From: an uncultured Candidatus Saccharibacteria bacterium
GTDB taxonomy: Bacteria; Patescibacteriota; Minisyncoccia; Phycocordibacterales; UBA918
Direction of reading: 5' to 3'
Length of the DNA stretch: 64,000 nucleotides
NCBI GenBank assembly: GCA_964399295.1
Contig: CAYNQD010000002.1
Location: forward strand, 104,358-168,357
The position numbers were made by a program, and so were the translations under genes. Below the pieces are notes generated by a model that saw only the letters and a program-made list of their open reading frames with translations, was not told the DNA's origin and did no database searches. The first letter of the stretch is position 1, and each line of letters starts with the position of its first letter. Shown piece by piece: positions 3,639 to 47,462 of this stretch.

Positions 3639-4250
3639 CTAACAACCAAACTCACTATTCTCACTGCAAGGACTGATGATGGTGTTTTCCAAGCTCGGTA
3701 CGCCTGGCTCATTTCCAGTGGTGGTAAAATCTTCAGCTTTCAAACCGTCTTCACCATTCCACATTGTCCAATAATATTTCCATTCATACCAACCGATATT
3801 GAGATGCTTGGTGGCAATTCCATTTTCAGAAAGAGCGAGGCCCACTTTTCGGCTAGCCATGCAGGCGGCACTGTAGCAGTAGGTAATAATGTCTTTATTT
3901 GGGTTGTCGGCTTTTAGTTCAGCAAAAGCGTTTACTATTCTTTCATTATTATCCTGTCCTGAAACCGCCGGGTCTATATAATTAGGAATGTTGATTGCGC
4001 TGGTGATGTGTTCGGCTTCATATTCAGCTGGAGTGCGAAGGTCTACCAAGACAAAAGAATCCTGTGTATTTCTTTGCAAGGCTGATTTAATATCGTAGGG
4101 ACTTACGGAAACCAAGTTTTCTATTTTGTAATATTCCGCGATGTGTTCCTCTTTAGTTTGATCAGAAAAGCTTGAGGTTGCGAGTACTCCCAAGCCACCA
4201 ATAACAACCCCCAGTATAAGGGCAACAATATGTGTATGTGTAATTTTCAT
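3639..4250 (-). CDS. membrane-anchored rhodanese-domain sulfurtransferase
   Basis: N-terminal TM helix. Rhodanese signature (VLVDLRTPAEYEAEHITSAINIP ... ITYCYSAAC catalytic Cys loop). Confidence 0.75.
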   Translation of the reverse strand: MKITHTHIVALILGVVIGGLGVLATSSFSDQTKEEHIAEYYKIENLVSVSPYDIKSALQRNTQDSFVLVDLRTPAEYEAEHITSAINIPNYIDPAVSGQDNNERIVNAFAELKADNPNKDIITYCYSAACMASRKVGLALSENGIATKHLNIGWYEWKYYWTMWNGEDGLKAEDFTTTGNEPGVPSLENTIISPCSENSEFGC

Positions 4251-4363
4251 ATAAGGAGAAGCATACCATTGTAGATAAATTATGAAAAGCAGTAGCTGGG
4301 CGAAAATTTGGAAAATAGGTAATTGTGTTGTATAATGAGGAGATGTTGGGGGTATTTCAAAAT

Positions 4364-6187
4364 ATGTTTCTCTTGTCGAGAAGCTTTATCTGTTTAGTGG
4401 CCGGCCTTGTGGCCGTGCCGGCTTTCTTCTTTGTGGCTACTGGTATGGCTTGGGCGCAAAGTGAAGGTTATCAAGTGGAGTTTAAGAGTACGGCTATTGA
4501 TTTAGGTCAAAGCGTGAAGGTGGAATGGCAAGCGCCGGCCGATCGTTTGAATGGCGCTTGGATCGGTATTTTCACGGAAGGTACCGGCAACAATAACTAT
4601 CGCACTTGGAAATATCTGCCCAAAGGAGTTACTTCCGGCGAAATGGATTTTGCCGTCAATGTGGCTGGTACTTATGAAGTGCGGTTGTTTTCTGATAGTG
4701 GTTATAACAAAGCGGCGGAGGGTTCTCATAAGCTGGTCATAACTAAAGCTGGCACTGTCGGCAGTGATACCGGTAATACCGGCAGTAGTGGCAGTGGTAG
4801 CAATAATGGAAATACCAACAACGGCAATAATAACAATTCTAATTCCGGTACCGGCAACAATTCTACCGGACAATATACTTTGTCCGCCAGTAAAAGCACT
4901 TATGAATTTGGAGAAACATTGCTGGTAAGCTTCACCACTCCTAGTCCCAGGACTAATGCCGACAGCGGGGCTTGGATCGGTATTTTCACGGAAGGTGCCA
5001 ATAATAATAATTACCGCACTTGGAAATACCTACCCAAAGGAGTCACGTCTGGCGAAATGGATTTTGCTGTAAGTGTGGCTGGTACTTATGAAGCCAGATT
5101 ATTTTCTGGTAGTTATACCAAGGTGACTGACTCAGATACTTTTTTAATCAAACCAAAAAGTAGCGTGGTCACACCACCACCAACCACACCACCACCAACT
5201 CAACCGCCAAGTGCTGACGAAAATTTTTCTTTAACTGTCAGTAGTCAGGCGATTGGCGTTGGTGGTTCGGTGACTGTGAGTTGGGAAGCTCCAACGGGAA
5301 TAGATCTGCGCAATGACTGGGTCGGTATTTATCGTACCGGAGCTTCAAATTTTTCTTACTTGAGTTATTTTTATACCAACGCCACCACCAACGGCAGCGC
5401 TACTTTTAGTATCACTGCGCCCGGTAGTTATGAGTTTCGTTATTTTCGCAATGGCTCATACACTCGGGTTTCTACTTCACCGGTGGTAAATGTCAGTGCC
5501 GATACCAGTAGTTTGCAGTGTAATTTATCCAACTCTACTTTGCAGAGTGTCACCAACTATCCGCCAAGTTCGGGGCCGATTATCGCTTTTGGTGATAGCT
5601 TGACGGCTGGGGTGGGAGCGACAGCGGGGCAGGATTATGTCAGTCAGTTGTCTCGCAAATCGGGAGTGCCAATAATCAACGCTGGTATTTCCGGCAACAC
5701 CACCCGCGATGCCGCGGCCCGTTTGCAGTCTGATGTCTTATCCAGAAATCCATCAGTGGTCATTGTGTGGCTGGGTGGAAATGATATTTTGCAACGCCAC
5801 TACGAAGGATTGTTTAATGGCGCCAATAATCCAAATCTCTACGAATCTTTGCGCCTGATTTTGCTGCGTGTCACCGGTAAAATTCCAGCGCCGCAAGGTA
5901 TTACCGAAGCTGAGACTTTCGCCAATCTGAAAGAAATTGTGGAAGATATTCAAGATCGGGGAGCTGTAACCATCGTGGTTGGTTTTAGCGGTGGAGTTTT
6001 TGACGCCAAACTGGAAGCTCTTTATAAAAAAGTGGCGGATGAAACCAACTCAATATACGTGCCAAACGCCATGAGCGGCATCATCGGCCGCGTGACTTTG
6101 ATGAGTGACTTGGTACACCCCAATAACGCCGGCTATGGCCTGGTAGCAGATAAGGTTTTACCATATTTGGTTTGTGTGGCGGGGTAG
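4364..6187 (+). CDS. secreted SGNH/GDSL-family hydrolase with three N-terminal ~100-aa beta-rich repeats and low-complexity Gly/Asn/Ser and Pro/Thr linkers
   Basis: Signal peptide starting at the Met at 4364 (the ORF is open from GTG 4325). Three repeats share AWIGIFTEG...YRTWKYLPKGVTSGEMDFAV.VAGTYE.RLFS. The C-terminus carries SGNH blocks (IIAFGDSLTAG, VVIVWLGGNDI, DLVHPN). Confidence 0.7.
   Translation: MFLLSRSFICLVAGLVAVPAFFFVATGMAWAQSEGYQVEFKSTAIDLGQSVKVEWQAPADRLNGAWIGIFTEGTGNNNYRTWKYLPKGVTSGEMDFAVNVAGTYEVRLFSDSGYNKAAEGSHKLVITKAGTVGSDTGNTGSSGSGSNNGNTNNGNNNNSNSGTGNNSTGQYTLSASKSTYEFGETLLVSFTTPSPRTNADSGAWIGIFTEGANNNNYRTWKYLPKGVTSGEMDFAVSVAGTYEARLFSGSYTKVTDSDTFLIKPKSSVVTPPPTTPPPTQPPSADENFSLTVSSQAIGVGGSVTVSWEAPTGIDLRNDWVGIYRTGASNFSYLSYFYTNATTNGSATFSITAPGSYEFRYFRNGSYTRVSTSPVVNVSADTSSLQCNLSNSTLQSVTNYPPSSGPIIAFGDSLTAGVGATAGQDYVSQLSRKSGVPIINAGISGNTTRDAAARLQSDVLSRNPSVVIVWLGGNDILQRHYEGLFNGANNPNLYESLRLILLRVTGKIPAPQGITEAETFANLKEIVEDIQDRGAVTIVVGFSGGVFDAKLEALYKKVADETNSIYVPNAMSGIIGRVTLMSDLVHPNNAGYGLVADKVLPYLVCVAG
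4553..4694 (+). repeat. intragenic tandem duplication, copy 1 (about 142 nt, about 85-90% identical to copy 2)
   Basis: The DNA stretch ggcgcttggatcggtattttcacggaagg...gaaatggattttgc...gctggtacttatgaag recurs at 4967-5108. Confidence 0.8.
4967..5108 (+). repeat. intragenic tandem duplication, copy 2
   Basis: See copy 1. Encodes the second AWIGIFTEG...GTYE repeat. Confidence 0.8.
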
Positions 6188-44482: not shown

Positions 44483-44609
44483 ATTAAGAATTTAAAATAA
44501 TACACTATAAGAAGCAAGAAGATACTACCATATATGCGACATCTATACTAATCAACCTAGTCATATTTTCACAACACTGGTAAAACTACTTCGTGAAAAA
44601 ATATAATTC

Positions 44610-46343
44610 ATGATAAAATATTTTGCAATGTCAATAGAACGAGGTGTGCGTCAAGACGATACATGGATAACAGTAGATTCCGTGGTTGGTTGTGCAAAAA
44701 GTTGTGGCTATTGTTTCTTACAGGGATACGATAAAACACTTAAGCCGGGCATGCCAATTATGTCGGCGGATAAAGCAATAGATAACGTATTGTCATTCGA
44801 AAATTATAGAATTGATAGTCCTATAATGGTTGGTAGTGAGACCGATGCTTTTATGAACCGCTCTAACATAAATTACTTTACTGAATTCTTTAGAATTTAC
44901 TCCGAACGTGAGCTGCCCAACCCCCTTGTGTTTTCAACAAAATGTAAAATTCCTAATGAGTTTATTGAGTTAGTAAGAAGTAACGAAGCAGTAAAGACTG
45001 TTTTTTATTTAAGCTTCTCTGGATTACCGCAAACAATTGAGCCCACAATAAAAGGCGAACATATTAGGGGTAACTTTGAACGATTGAGTGAGGCAGAAAT
45101 TCCAACAATTCACTATTGGCGTCCATTCTTGCCTCAAAATGCACAACGAGAGAAAATTAGAGAAATAATTGATTATGTTGCAAAGCTGGCTACCTGTAGT
45201 GTTGCTGTAGGTTTGAAAACTAATGATGAAATAATTAAACATCTACTCGCAGCGTGGCCGGAACTAGGTAATAATACAGAAGAGGCAAAGGCTGCGGCTG
45301 ACGTATGGCCAGAGGGTGTAAAAGATTATATTGAGGAATACACCAGTATAAAATTTCCGGAGTATCCACTTTTTTGGGTTAATTCATGCGCCCTAGCGTA
45401 CGCGCTACAAAAACCAGATTTTAATGCAATGTTTAAGGGAACTGCCTGCGATGCCAATCATTGCCCGCCCGACCAACGTGAACGGTGCGCGATAAATCTA
45501 TTAGGTTACAAACCATCTCCAGACAGCATTCGTGAAGCTTTGACGCAAATGGGTTTAGAAGATTGTAAGTTTGAAATTGATGAAAAGGAGAGAGTTGTTT
45601 CTGTGCAAGGTGATGTTACACATGGTCAACTTATTTACTTGAGGCAGAAGTTGAATTATCCAATCAAAGTACGAGGGGAGTTCTTGAGTACAAATGAATG
45701 GTCGGGACACGCGACAAACAAAGAGTCTATGCACTTACCATACGCAACCGAAAACTTCGATATTGATGTTATTTGGGAACGAGCTCAATATACTCGAAAT
45801 TTATTTCGTTCAGTAGAAAGAGTTGAATGGGGCGCGGAGCAGTACGCGCTTGAGTTGATGGTGCAAGTAGGACATCTATCAGACTTAGTACTAAGACAAG
45901 AACATAAACTAAATCGTCGCACAGAAGAAGAAAATGCTGATGCAATTGCTGATGAGATAAGTGACGTTGTTTTAAATATCTTTTCTATTGCGGATGCTTT
46001 TACTATTTCTGTTCCAACTCTAGTTAGAGAGAAATTAGGTATCTACTGGAGCGATATTGTTGATAGTAGAAAACTTATTGAAGACCTTGAATCAAGTCAT
46101 CCAACGAGCGATCAAATCGGTTTGGCCATGCTTGAATTATCAAAACAATCTGCATTGCTTGCAAGTATGGTTATTTCAGTTGGAAAAGAGGATATTGGAC
46201 AGAAGGAATTAAGTCAAGCGTTACTAGATTCCCTTCGTGCATGTTTTTCTGTACTGAATTTCTACAACGTCAATTTACATAAAGCATTTGACAAAATGAT
46301 CCTCGAATCTGAAGCATTTGTCGAAAAAAATAAACTCGCATAA
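44610..46343 (+). CDS. fusion protein: SplB-like radical-SAM domain plus C-terminal tandem MazG-like NTP-pyrophosphohydrolase domains
   Basis: CxxxCxxC as GCAKSCGYCFLQ, the COG1533/SplB-type context. C-terminal E-rich helices RRTEEENADAIADEISDVVLNIFSIA and ...LLDSLRACFSVLNFYNVNL match the MazG EExxE...DE.GD.L pattern twice. Confidence 0.6.
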   Translation: MIKYFAMSIERGVRQDDTWITVDSVVGCAKSCGYCFLQGYDKTLKPGMPIMSADKAIDNVLSFENYRIDSPIMVGSETDAFMNRSNINYFTEFFRIYSERELPNPLVFSTKCKIPNEFIELVRSNEAVKTVFYLSFSGLPQTIEPTIKGEHIRGNFERLSEAEIPTIHYWRPFLPQNAQREKIREIIDYVAKLATCSVAVGLKTNDEIIKHLLAAWPELGNNTEEAKAAADVWPEGVKDYIEEYTSIKFPEYPLFWVNSCALAYALQKPDFNAMFKGTACDANHCPPDQRERCAINLLGYKPSPDSIREALTQMGLEDCKFEIDEKERVVSVQGDVTHGQLIYLRQKLNYPIKVRGEFLSTNEWSGHATNKESMHLPYATENFDIDVIWERAQYTRNLFRSVERVEWGAEQYALELMVQVGHLSDLVLRQEHKLNRRTEEENADAIADEISDVVLNIFSIADAFTISVPTLVREKLGIYWSDIVDSRKLIEDLESSHPTSDQIGLAMLELSKQSALLASMVISVGKEDIGQKELSQALLDSLRACFSVLNFYNVNLHKAFDKMILESEAFVEKNKLA

Positions 46344-46354
46344 TTATTTCATAC

Positions 46355-46999
46355 ATGAAAGAAGAAATACTTCCAATTTACGACGCGTTTAACAAGTCAG
46401 CGGGAACGGCAAGTCGGTCAGAAATTCATACTAAAGGACTTTGGCATAGGTCTGTTAATTTTATCGTCCTCGATCCTAAAAAAAGAACTGTGATTTTTCA
46501 AGACTCAAATACCCTTGATACGTACGATGTTGAAAAATTCTTTGTAAAAATGAATGGCGGGCATGTTCAGGGCGATAATATGATTCAAGAAATGTCTCGT
46601 GAGCTTAATGAAGAGCTGGGTTTAAAAATTGATAAGGCCGATGACGTTCATTTTTTAGGTGTGTATCAAATTTCATTTGAGCCAACAAAGGACTTTATAA
46701 ATCATGAGTTTATGTATTTTTACTTGGTAGCTTTTTCTAATGCTTTTGAAAAAATAAATATGGACGGCACGGAAGTTAAATCTATTTTTGAAATAAAAAT
46801 AGATGAAGCTGTTGATTTACTAATTAGCGAGAGAAACATGGTCCAAGTTACCGCTAGGGATGTAGGAGGAAAAAACATAACTCTTAACTTCACCAAGCAA
46901 TCCTTTAAAAATTTCACTGACGATTCTTTATACTTAAGAATCTTCCTTGCTTTACAAGACTTTTGTAACGGAAGAAACAAAAAATATATAGTGATTTAA
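46355..46999 (+). CDS. Nudix hydrolase
   Basis: Nudix box GGHVQGDNMIQEMSRELNEELGL (Gx5[E/D]x7REUxEExGU). Confidence 0.7.
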   Translation: MKEEILPIYDAFNKSAGTASRSEIHTKGLWHRSVNFIVLDPKKRTVIFQDSNTLDTYDVEKFFVKMNGGHVQGDNMIQEMSRELNEELGLKIDKADDVHFLGVYQISFEPTKDFINHEFMYFYLVAFSNAFEKINMDGTEVKSIFEIKIDEAVDLLISERNMVQVTARDVGGKNITLNFTKQSFKNFTDDSLYLRIFLALQDFCNGRNKKYIVI

Positions 47000-47042
47000 A
47001 AGCACCCTTACCAGTTTTGGTTGAGGGTGCTTGTGGTCATAC

Positions 47043-47462
47043 TTAGAACAAAGACATAACTCGCTCTTTTGAGAAGAAAATCACTGCTTCTCTGAAAAAT
47101 TGGTCGAAGTTTTCACTTGAGTGAGCAAGATTGTGGGCAATGTCGCAACCCATGTTCCTTATTGTGCCTGGAAGACTGAGTTTCGGCTCGTTGATACCAA
47201 CCAGAGCATTGAGCTGGTCTATAGCACGACGTCCTGAAACAATTACTCCATGACAGTCACCAGAGGTCATGTGGCGACACAAATCATCGAAATAGTGTTC
47301 AAAACGACATTGATGATAGAACAGACGAGCTTCAGCAGGACTGAACGATCTCCGGTCCTGCATGATAATTTCAAGACCTTGGTCGACTATCATCTGTATA
47401 CAATGTTCAACCAATTGACGTTCAACACAATCTGGCTTGAGTAAGCAAAATGAGTAAATCAT
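47043..47462 (-). CDS. ndk: nucleoside diphosphate kinase (short form)
   Basis: LLKPD, LPGTIR and N..H.S active-site His context. 139 aa. Confidence 0.7.
   Translation of the reverse strand: MIYSFCLLKPDCVERQLVEHCIQMIVDQGLEIIMQDRRSFSPAEARLFYHQCRFEHYFDDLCRHMTSGDCHGVIVSGRRAIDQLNALVGINEPKLSLPGTIRNMGCDIAHNLAHSSENFDQFFREAVIFFSKERVMSLF

Follow-up and report, generated by a model that had tools for sequence, protein, structure and literature searches.

Several described systems couple nucleotide modification to kinases and phosphohydrolases. The gp56/gp42/gp1 pathway of phage T4 and the MazZ/PurZ pathway of Z-genome phages combine an all-alpha nucleoside triphosphate (NTP) pyrophosphatase with an enzyme that modifies nucleotides and with kinases or nucleoside-diphosphate kinase (NDK). 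In T4, the gp56 dCTPase makes dCMP, gp42 modifies dCMP, and kinases and NDK rebuild the triphosphate. A different chemistry is used by radical S-adenosylmethionine (SAM) enzymes acting on free nucleotides (viperin, MoaA, QueE, OxsB, AbmM and the 4'-thiothymidine enzyme), each of which opened a field: antiviral chain terminators, cofactors and nucleoside antibiotics are among them. The thmABC genes of Photorhabdus asymbiotica encode a radical-SAM enzyme, a kinase and a nucleoside triphosphatase that suffice for making 4'-thiothymidine in E. coli; the triphosphatase alone confers self-resistance, and the genes form a minimal mobile three-gene unit whose flanks differ between species (PMC12691670). 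Among viperins, linkage or fusion to nucleotide kinases is common, and to a triphosphatase domain occasional (bioRxiv 10.1101/2023.09.13.557418). Here we describe a three-gene, 2.9-kb module in a 64,000-nucleotide stretch of DNA (the window) from an uncultured Candidatus Saccharibacteria bacterium (contig CAYNQD010000002.1), in which a radical-SAM domain is fused to a helical domain of the pyrophosphohydrolase type and is accompanied by a Nudix hydrolase and an NDK.

Throughout, A denotes the radical-SAM family, B the helical domain, C an orphan family with an NDK fold, D the Nudix hydrolase and M a methyltransferase-like protein; loci and database proteins are cited by L and P numbers. Our favoured reading, held with moderate confidence, is that the module tailors a nucleotide, that its product is a modified nucleoside or nucleotide, and that B and D limit the toxic triphosphate. 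Functions are inferred throughout, on the basis of folds, motifs and gene linkage. A first-pass annotation of the DNA had not recognised the fusion as described, and our search of the literature on radical-SAM enzymes combined with MazG, Nudix, NDK or dUTPase likewise found no description of the module.

By analogy, thmABC offers the nearest experimentally proven logic. Compared by gene content, both systems have co-clustered radical-SAM, kinase and NTPase genes with variable flanks. In contrast to our module, the thmABC kinase is AbmG/dNK-like and not of the NDK fold, and neither a Nudix partner nor a fusion is reported. The distributions differ too: thmABC occurs in Enterobacterales and Vibrio, where our scans did not find the module family. 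Viperins show no specific sequence relationship to domain A and lack an auxiliary four-cysteine site, a fused pyrophosphatase and a Nudix partner. The modifying enzymes of the T4 and Z-genome pathways are not radical-SAM proteins; these pathways are phage-borne and tied to DNA replication, whereas the module has no phage-genome match. Clusters that tailor nucleotides by means of radical-SAM enzymes, kinases and phosphohydrolases are already known; the one described here is built from the unstudied families A, B and C.

Conservation and rearrangement of the module

The fusion, Nudix and NDK genes stay linked in L009, L010, L011, L017 and L019, while both flanks change. This supports the conclusion that the three genes form one functional unit. 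The first-pass annotation had suggested a survey of homologues for conserved neighbourhoods, and these are indeed found: the trio is kept with changing flanks in close relatives, and in distant lineages the same families lie adjacent or are otherwise fused. Its central proposal, a radical-SAM half and a pyrophosphohydrolase-superfamily half in one chain, also stands. The fusion is kept in more than ten protein clusters. These clusters, at 75–100% identity, and independent, more divergent fusions rule out an assembly or frameshift artefact.

Full-length relatives of the fusion protein are 75–100% identical to it and are labelled Candidatus Pacebacteria or Candidatus Saccharibacteria in their sources, labels that place the organism among the CPR/Patescibacteria; one (P0001, 571 aa) is 100% identical. 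More distant relatives have about 370 aa and end where the linker between the two domains begins. Arrangements were surveyed by a hidden Markov model census of 72 sources, comprising the fetched loci and a 20-kb slice of the window, with 53 loci from GTDB species representatives. Open reading frames (ORFs) in the fetched loci are simple calls and are over-extended in GC-rich DNA.

The order in the window and its close relatives is A-B fusion, D, NDK. Other contigs of the Candidate Phyla Radiation (CPR) have five separate genes in the order M, A, B (173–187 aa), C (about 190 aa) and D; the B proteins of these contigs resemble window B with E=7e-25 to 5e-31. In Shapirobacteria, the gene directly 3' of a stand-alone A encodes a 382-aa B-C fusion, the first 200 residues of which resemble window B (BLASTP E=4e-25; hhalign probability 99.2%). 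Window B is also homologous to the separate gene beside stand-alone A in L006, L007 and L001 (E=1e-23 to 5e-31). The gut Bacilli combine A with a B-D fusion that has an extra tail, preceded by a LysR regulator gene. Fusion in the reverse order, B-A, is found in L035. Clostridium has B followed by A, L059 and L061 have A, B and D, L026 has D, B and A, and L027 and L028 have an A-B fusion, a P-loop protein and D. Domain B is the hub of these arrangements: radical-SAM enzyme, NDK-fold protein and Nudix hydrolase each occur fused to it. The combination of A, B and D is shared by CPR bacteria, gut Bacilli/Tenericutes, Clostridia and Alphaproteobacteria, whether as separate genes or in independent fusions.

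The CPR carriers belong to lineages labelled Saccharibacteria, Dojkabacteria, Shapirobacteria and Gracilibacteria. Other carriers include many metagenome-assembled genomes of gut Bacilli/Tenericutes, as well as Clostridia, Micavibrio and other Alphaproteobacteria, Rickettsiales, Planctomycetota and the actinobacteria Streptomyces, Kitasatospora and Nocardia; plasmids of Streptomyces and Rhizobiales are among them. The module is present on two IMG/VR contigs. No match was found in 50,697 phage genomes, and the PHROG families gave one weak match of unassigned function.

The B-D fusions of L044 (9116-10690) and about 25 other gut Bacilli/Tenericutes loci carry a Lys-rich tail of 100–140 aa, in which we found no similarity to NDK or C. 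A conserved protein of about 158 aa without a Pfam match follows in the gut Bacilli operon. Apparent fusions of an N-terminal domain to A (788–834 aa) in Streptomyces and Kitasatospora contain no EPSP or other domain and are an ORF-calling artefact of GC-rich DNA.

The radical-SAM domain

By motif and predicted fold, residues 7 to about 376 of the window fusion protein are a radical-SAM core, as the first-pass annotation had proposed for the N-terminal half. The segment GCAKSCGYC (residues 27–35) contains the cysteine motif and aligns with the cluster motif of NifB. An AlphaFold model of the fusion protein, built on 22 homologues (predicted local distance difference test, pLDDT, 81.8), has the partial TIM-barrel core of radical-SAM enzymes in this half. 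Foldseek matched it with probability 1.0 to PFL-AE, SkfB, SuiB, NifB, viperin and spore photoproduct lyase (SPL) alike; the domain thus lacks a close relative among solved structures, and SPL does not stand out.

Profile searches, the check suggested at first pass, yielded matches of the window protein alone to Radical_SAM and MazG-like, both of them sub-threshold. For Radical_SAM (PF04055) the score was 13.9 bits against a threshold of 29.5 (E=0.064). The homologue in L059 passes at 29.9 bits, and several database homologues carry a precomputed PF04055 match. In NCBIfam, the only model to match the window protein was rSAM_PA0069, with 11.7 bits against a cut-off of 360 (E=0.091).

The placement of the protein in an SplB/COG1533 context by the first-pass annotation did not hold up, given the PA0069 score and an SPL match restricted to the cysteine motif. 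Domain A is 13% identical to SPL/COG1533 'SplB' proteins, a comparison of its profile with SPL in the PDB gave E=0.55 over 19 residues, no SPL model in NCBIfam matches, and SPL was not the outstanding closest structure in the fold comparison. We found no evidence of DNA binding. Viperin was also rejected as an identity for domain A: none of the viperin models in defence libraries matches, and the likeness in fold is that of radical-SAM enzymes in general.

Conservation was assessed in 56 distinct A domains representing all phyla in which the family was found. All keep D79, K111, S135, S137, E144, H168, R171, P172, G201 and the four cysteines C260, C280, C285 and C293; Q289 and R290 are kept in 54 of the 56. 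Invariance of the four additional cysteines makes an auxiliary Fe–S cluster or metal site probable. Such a cluster could take part in the chemistry, for example as a source of a donor atom, by analogy with AbmM.

The helical pyrophosphohydrolase-type domain

Domain B is predicted to adopt an all-alpha helical-bundle fold, which places it in the MazG/HisE/dimeric-dUTPase superfamily of all-alpha NTP pyrophosphohydrolases. Sequence profiles point in the same direction below their gathering thresholds. The MazG-like match of the window protein (E=0.023) covers residues 428–476, and the window B domain scores 15.4–17.4 bits against a Pfam threshold of 27. B orthologues match MazG-like (E=1.1e-5) and dUTPase_2 (E=1.2e-3); the best reach 26.0 bits against 27 and 19.6 against 22.9, respectively, all below the gathering thresholds of PF03819, PF12643 and PF08761. 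Pfam matches among members of the family are to MazG-like, MazG, PRA-PH and dUTPase_2.

The first-pass annotation had read this half as a tandem MazG. Membership of the superfamily is borne out by the fold; the duplication is not. Its first helical segment (EEENADAIADEISDVVLNIF) corresponds to the conserved DExxD helix, and its second (…LDSLRACFSVLNFYNVNL) has no MazG motif. Alignment of the two halves of B with hhalign gave a probability of 2% (E=0.024), and some A-B fusions have a single helical unit only (P0047). As the halves are not detectably alike in sequence, a single dimeric-dUTPase-like domain with one conserved site is the better description of B.

That site is E..QxGH...DExxD, and none of the 40 distinct B domains departs from E415, Q419, G421, H422, D448, E449 or D452. 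Compared with DCTPP1-type motifs, Q419 and H422 occupy the places of two metal-binding glutamates. The first motif, E-x3-Q-x-G-H instead of EExxE, distinguishes B from dimeric dUTPases and MazG-like proteins (dUTPase_2 PF08761, MazG PF03819, MazG-like PF12643, DCTPP1/RS21-C6 and YpjD), as does its constant linkage or fusion to a radical-SAM enzyme. Relatives of B outside the module have Glu or Asp at the positions of Q419 and H422 and grade into ordinary MazG-like proteins. That the site of B is kept so strictly in different phyla suggests that it is active and specialised, not decayed.

An alternative is that B does not hydrolyse its ligand and is a module that binds nucleotides, or presents them as substrates, for the radical-SAM, NDK-fold and Nudix partners. 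Its position as the hub of all fusions would fit this, as would the replacement of two canonical metal-binding glutamates by Gln419 and His422 in every member. We consider this markedly improbable: E415, D448, E449 and D452 stay invariant, histidine can bind metal, the pattern is conserved and not degenerate, and relatives with Glu or Asp at these places grade into ordinary MazG-like proteins.

Family B is very rare. A HMMER search against 1.84 billion cluster representatives returned only 25 proteins at E<=0.001, among them the A-B fusions P0033 and P0047, B-C fusions and a tail of 100–128-aa proteins that match Pfam MazG, MazG-like and PRA-PH. Such rarity is unlike that of housekeeping genes and bears on the idea that there is no joint pathway at all, and that an SPL-like repair enzyme and a house-cleaning dUTPase-like protein, Nudix hydrolase and NDK are clustered by recA for DNA integrity. 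In the window recA does lie 150 nt past the NDK gene, one source labels a homologue 'DNA repair photolyase', and dUTPase, Nudix and NDK are classic pool-maintenance activities. Nevertheless, this explanation is highly improbable. The confinement of SPL similarity to the cysteine motif and the lack of an SPL match in NCBIfam speak against the repair enzyme, relatives do not keep the recA/EF-P context, and the invariant Gln/His site of B is unlike that of house-cleaning MazG proteins and dUTPases. The repeated, independent joining of B to A, C and D in different phyla would also be hard to explain without a shared pathway.

The kinase-type partner and the Nudix hydrolase

Family C, which accompanies A and B in other CPR cassettes, is an orphan by sequence and has an NDK fold by structure. 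Sequence comparison does not identify it as an NDK relative: hhalign against the window NDK gave a probability of 0.1%, and the PDB and Pfam gave no match. An invariant motif, LHHIHA(P/A)D, has His and Asp spaced as in the NDK motif H-G-S-D, to which it may correspond. Since C has the NDK fold in predicted structures, we take the window NDK to fill a recurrent phosphotransfer slot that is held by C in other CPR cassettes. Elsewhere the kinase-type slot is occupied by an APH kinase (Shapirobacteria), an HprK-like P-loop protein (Clostridia) or an AAA_28 P-loop protein (Rhizobium). Searches with tblastn found no homologues of C or of the methyltransferase-like gene elsewhere in the window.

The window NDK is divergent. 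It matches PF00334 over its full length and above the threshold of 27 bits, where a canonical NDK scores 192, and with 88.9 bits against 155 it falls below the cut-off of the NCBIfam housekeeping equivalog. Its catalytic His114 is kept in NLAHSSE and aligns with the catalytic histidine of 3vvt. Relative to 3vvt, Asn replaces Arg of the R-x-x-x-G-A-T segment of canonical NDKs, and Glu replaces Asp after the catalytic histidine (HSSE versus HGSD or HASD). A further kinase-like sequence lies before the L006 cassette (L006:194-490), where a 98-aa ORF with a P-loop weakly matches deoxynucleoside kinases (PF01712, E=1.6e-4). Possibly a dNK-like gene that has been truncated, it recalls the AbmG/ThmB-type kinase of thio-nucleoside clusters, the type found in thmABC.

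The product of gene D passes the Pfam NUDIX threshold (PF00293, 21.1 bits), and its Nudix box reads GX5DX7RELNEELGL. Human IDI2 (2pny, E=4e-5) and YfcD (2fkb) are the closest solved relatives. Orthologues of D with 37–43% identity are present in the L006 and L007 cassettes. Isopentenyl-diphosphate isomerase (IDI) type 1 was rejected as an identity on the basis of NCBIfam scores of 25.7 against 127 and 20.0 against 105.8 bits. In L007 (321-12863) and L008, the M-A-B-C-D cassette has genes for a terpene synthase and a squalene-hopene cyclase on one flank; its other flank carries genes for a polyprenyl synthase, a guanylate kinase, a mevalonate-diphosphate-decarboxylase-like protein and a GHMP kinase. 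This context could hint at an isoprenoid role for D, but D is far under the IDI cut-offs and is fused to B elsewhere, so that the context is probably a coincidence.

The recurrence of an NDK-fold partner would also suit a pathway that feeds a modified nucleotide into the cell's own or phage DNA or RNA, with B making the nucleoside monophosphate (NMP), A modifying it, and kinases and NDK rebuilding the triphosphate. The dimeric dUTPases, to which domain B comes closest, produce dUMP; in several CPR cassettes A is preceded by a class-I methyltransferase-like gene; and DNA methyltransferases lie near the module in L001 and L011, flanking it in the latter. We nevertheless judge this very unlikely. 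The module shows no consistent linkage to a polymerase, glycosylase, transglycosylase or NMP kinase, its viral occurrence amounts to the two IMG/VR contigs against none of the phage genomes searched, and the fusion of Nudix to B argues for breakdown of phosphates over their build-up.

Proposed nucleotide-tailoring pathway

We favour instead a pathway in which a nucleotide is modified and its toxic triphosphate kept in check. Known structural relatives of B all bind (d)NTPs or (d)NDPs, and this, together with the role of B as the fusion hub, suggests that the pathway is centred on one nucleotide. Several independent gene fusions across at least five phyla could hardly be bettered as comparative evidence that the families share a pathway.

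In the first step, NDK, or its stand-ins elsewhere, would set the di- or triphosphate state of a (deoxy)nucleotide. The radical-SAM domain would then alter the sugar or base of this nucleotide via a 5'-deoxyadenosyl radical. The fused domain B might take pyrophosphate off the substrate or, more likely, off the modified triphosphate made on the same polypeptide. Finally, the Nudix enzyme would trim the product further or sanitise the pool. Overall, the cell would produce a modified nucleoside or nucleotide, the toxic triphosphate form of which is kept from the cell's own polymerases. Judged by analogous systems, use as an antimetabolite or other bioactive nucleoside is the most likely fate of the product.

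Several observations weigh against this pathway. The window protein is under the Pfam thresholds for both domains. With Gln and His replacing two metal-binding glutamates in B, hydrolytic activity is not assured. The GC content of the NDK gene is average (0.424), and this could be the cell's only, housekeeping NDK that merely lies beside the operon. Actinobacterial A homologues occur without B and D, which implies that A can function in the absence of these two. Defence and mobile-gene surroundings of some loci fit a defence role equally well. Substrate, reaction and product rest on inference, and families A, B and C have no studied member.

More tentatively, A, B and C may constitute an unrecognised radical-SAM route to a modified (deoxy)nucleotide, with its own Gln/His-site pyrophosphatase and its own NDK-fold phosphotransferase, that serves as a weapon or antiviral in ultra-small episymbionts (CPR, Micavibrio and Tenericutes-like gut Bacilli) and is aimed at hosts, competitors or phages; we see this as a possible but doubtful extension. 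Many carriers belong to generally small-genome, host-dependent groups (CPR, Tenericutes-like gut Bacilli, Micavibrio and Rickettsiales) of which the chemistry is little known. Should the product prove to be a new nucleotide analogue, a drug lead or a new immune effector could come of it. Otherwise, new enzymology would still be provided by the invariant Gln/His variant of the MazG/dUTPase site and by the orphan NDK-fold family. With three genes, the module is small enough for direct heterologous study.

The locus in the window

The ORF, cysteine cluster, Nudix box and converging 139-aa NDK listed by the first-pass annotation are all present in the sequence (Table 1). All database homologues of the fusion protein start at the methionine encoded at 44628 ('MSIE...'), and a TATAAT lies at about 44602-44607, 5' of the gene; 44628 is therefore the likelier start, ahead of the mechanical ORF start at 44610. 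The linker between the two domains has a pLDDT below 50 at residues 379–381, and stand-alone A proteins end at this position. The Nudix gene is co-directional with the fusion gene, with a gap of 11 nt from the fusion stop codon, and the stem-loop that follows it is a probable bidirectional terminator.

Table 1. Coordinates of genes, domains and motifs of the module in the window (residue numbers of the fusion protein follow the 577-aa ORF)
Feature	Position	Strand	Details
Radical-SAM / all-alpha NTP-pyrophosphohydrolase fusion gene	44628..46343	+	571 aa; mechanical ORF from 44610 = 577 aa
Domain A, radical-SAM domain with C-terminal alpha/beta subdomain (predicted)	44628..45737	+	residues 7 to ~376
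CxxxCxYC motif (C28, C32, C35), ligands of the SAM-cleaving [4Fe-4S] cluster	44691..44714	+	conserved in 54/56 homologues
Second four-cysteine site (C260, C280, C285, C293; with Q289, R290)	45387..45488	+	Cys invariant in 56/56
Linker between domains A and B, flexible (predicted)	45738..45758	+	residues ~377-383
Domain B, all-alpha NTP-pyrophosphohydrolase domain (predicted), fold closest to dimeric dUTPase	45759..46337	+	residues 384-576
B motif 1, E415-L-M-V-Q419-V-G421-H422	45852..45875	+	stands where the canonical EExxE metal-binding helix would be
B motif 2, D448-E449-I-S-D452	45951..45965	+	equivalent to the canonical E-x-x-D metal-binding helix
Gene D, Nudix hydrolase of the IDI/YfcD-like branch	46355..46999	+	214 aa; Pfam NUDIX 35.2 bits
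Nudix box GGHVQGDNMIQEMSRELNEELGL	46556..46624	+	residues 68-90 of D; GX5EX7REUXEEXGU with Asp for first Glu
Stem-loop between convergent stop codons	47000..47033	.	-21 kcal/mol; z=-3.47 vs shuffles
Divergent NDK, convergent on Nudix gene	47043..47462	-	139 aa; Pfam NDK 93.6 bits

The three-gene block (44610-47462) has a GC content of 0.381 compared with about 0.43 for the window, placing it in the 1st percentile of windows of the same size. The fusion gene (0.386) and the Nudix gene, which is lowest (0.335), cause the drop. The composition gives the three genes the look of one horizontally acquired unit. They are set among ordinary chromosomal genes, with rpsF, ssb, rpsR and EF-P on the 5' side and RecA and FtsK on the 3' side.

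Genomic surroundings of related modules

In L009 (2664-11176), a PhdYeFM/PemK toxin-antitoxin pair lies on one flank of the module, and a serine recombinase, two NOV_C proteins and a Schlafen-AlbA_2 protein lie on the other; these surroundings look like a mobile or defence island. On both IMG/VR contigs (L070 and L071), the region at 7.5–13 kb, 3' of the module, contains a match to a major tail protein PHROG (E=2e-8) and PHROGs of unassigned function, so that the Tenericutes module appears to border a prophage-like or tail-like region.

Such neighbours would be expected if the module served viperin-type anti-phage defence, with the radical-SAM domain turning an NDK-supplied NTP into a chain-terminating analogue and the pyrophosphatase and Nudix enzyme limiting self-poisoning or resetting the pool. 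Toxin-antitoxin, recombinase, NOV_C, Schlafen-AlbA_2, DNA methyltransferase, Abi_2, VapC and ABC-three-component genes surround some loci, phage-like genes border the module in gut Tenericutes, and patchy distribution and low GC content fit as well, as does the frequent linkage or fusion of viperins to nucleotide kinases and sometimes to triphosphatase domains. On balance, we find a defence role unlikely. The module has no match in the PADLOC defence library, to any model of which none of the three proteins corresponds, and PFL-AE, SPL and NifB score higher than viperin in what is a generic likeness of fold. EF-P and RecA are the neighbours in this window, and the largest group of loci has a LysR regulator and an ABC exporter, partners with a metabolic or biosynthetic look. 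A triphosphate effector would, moreover, be destroyed by the fused pyrophosphatase.

Nucleotide tailoring remains our preferred reading. The ABC exporter and LysR regulator accompany the gut Bacilli operons. Actinobacterial A homologues occur with GT4, a class II aldolase, a MurA/EPSP-synthase-like gene, a P450 and a DUF6415 'natural product biosynthesis' protein. The MurA/EPSP-synthase-like gene, located 5' of A in L005 and L073, is a separate, real gene. Its combination with A may resemble the NikO/NikJ-PolA/PolH logic (PMC5365060).

The most distant surroundings are on plasmids. L072 (5902-9693; Rhizobium plasmid NZ_CP072166.1) and L073 (Streptomyces plasmid) carry distant A homologues with 26–33% identity. 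Just 3' of A, both have genes for an RNase_T-type (DEDD) 3'-5' exonuclease and an AAA_28 P-loop protein; the pair directly adjoins A in L072 and comes after a small helix-turn-helix gene in L073. An HD-domain protein (HD_assoc_2, sub-threshold), VapC and an ABC-three-component system are nearby in the Rhizobium locus. In L006, a second radical-SAM/SPASM protein (4065-4985) is encoded right after the cassette, and three glycosyltransferase or pyruvyl-transferase genes follow.

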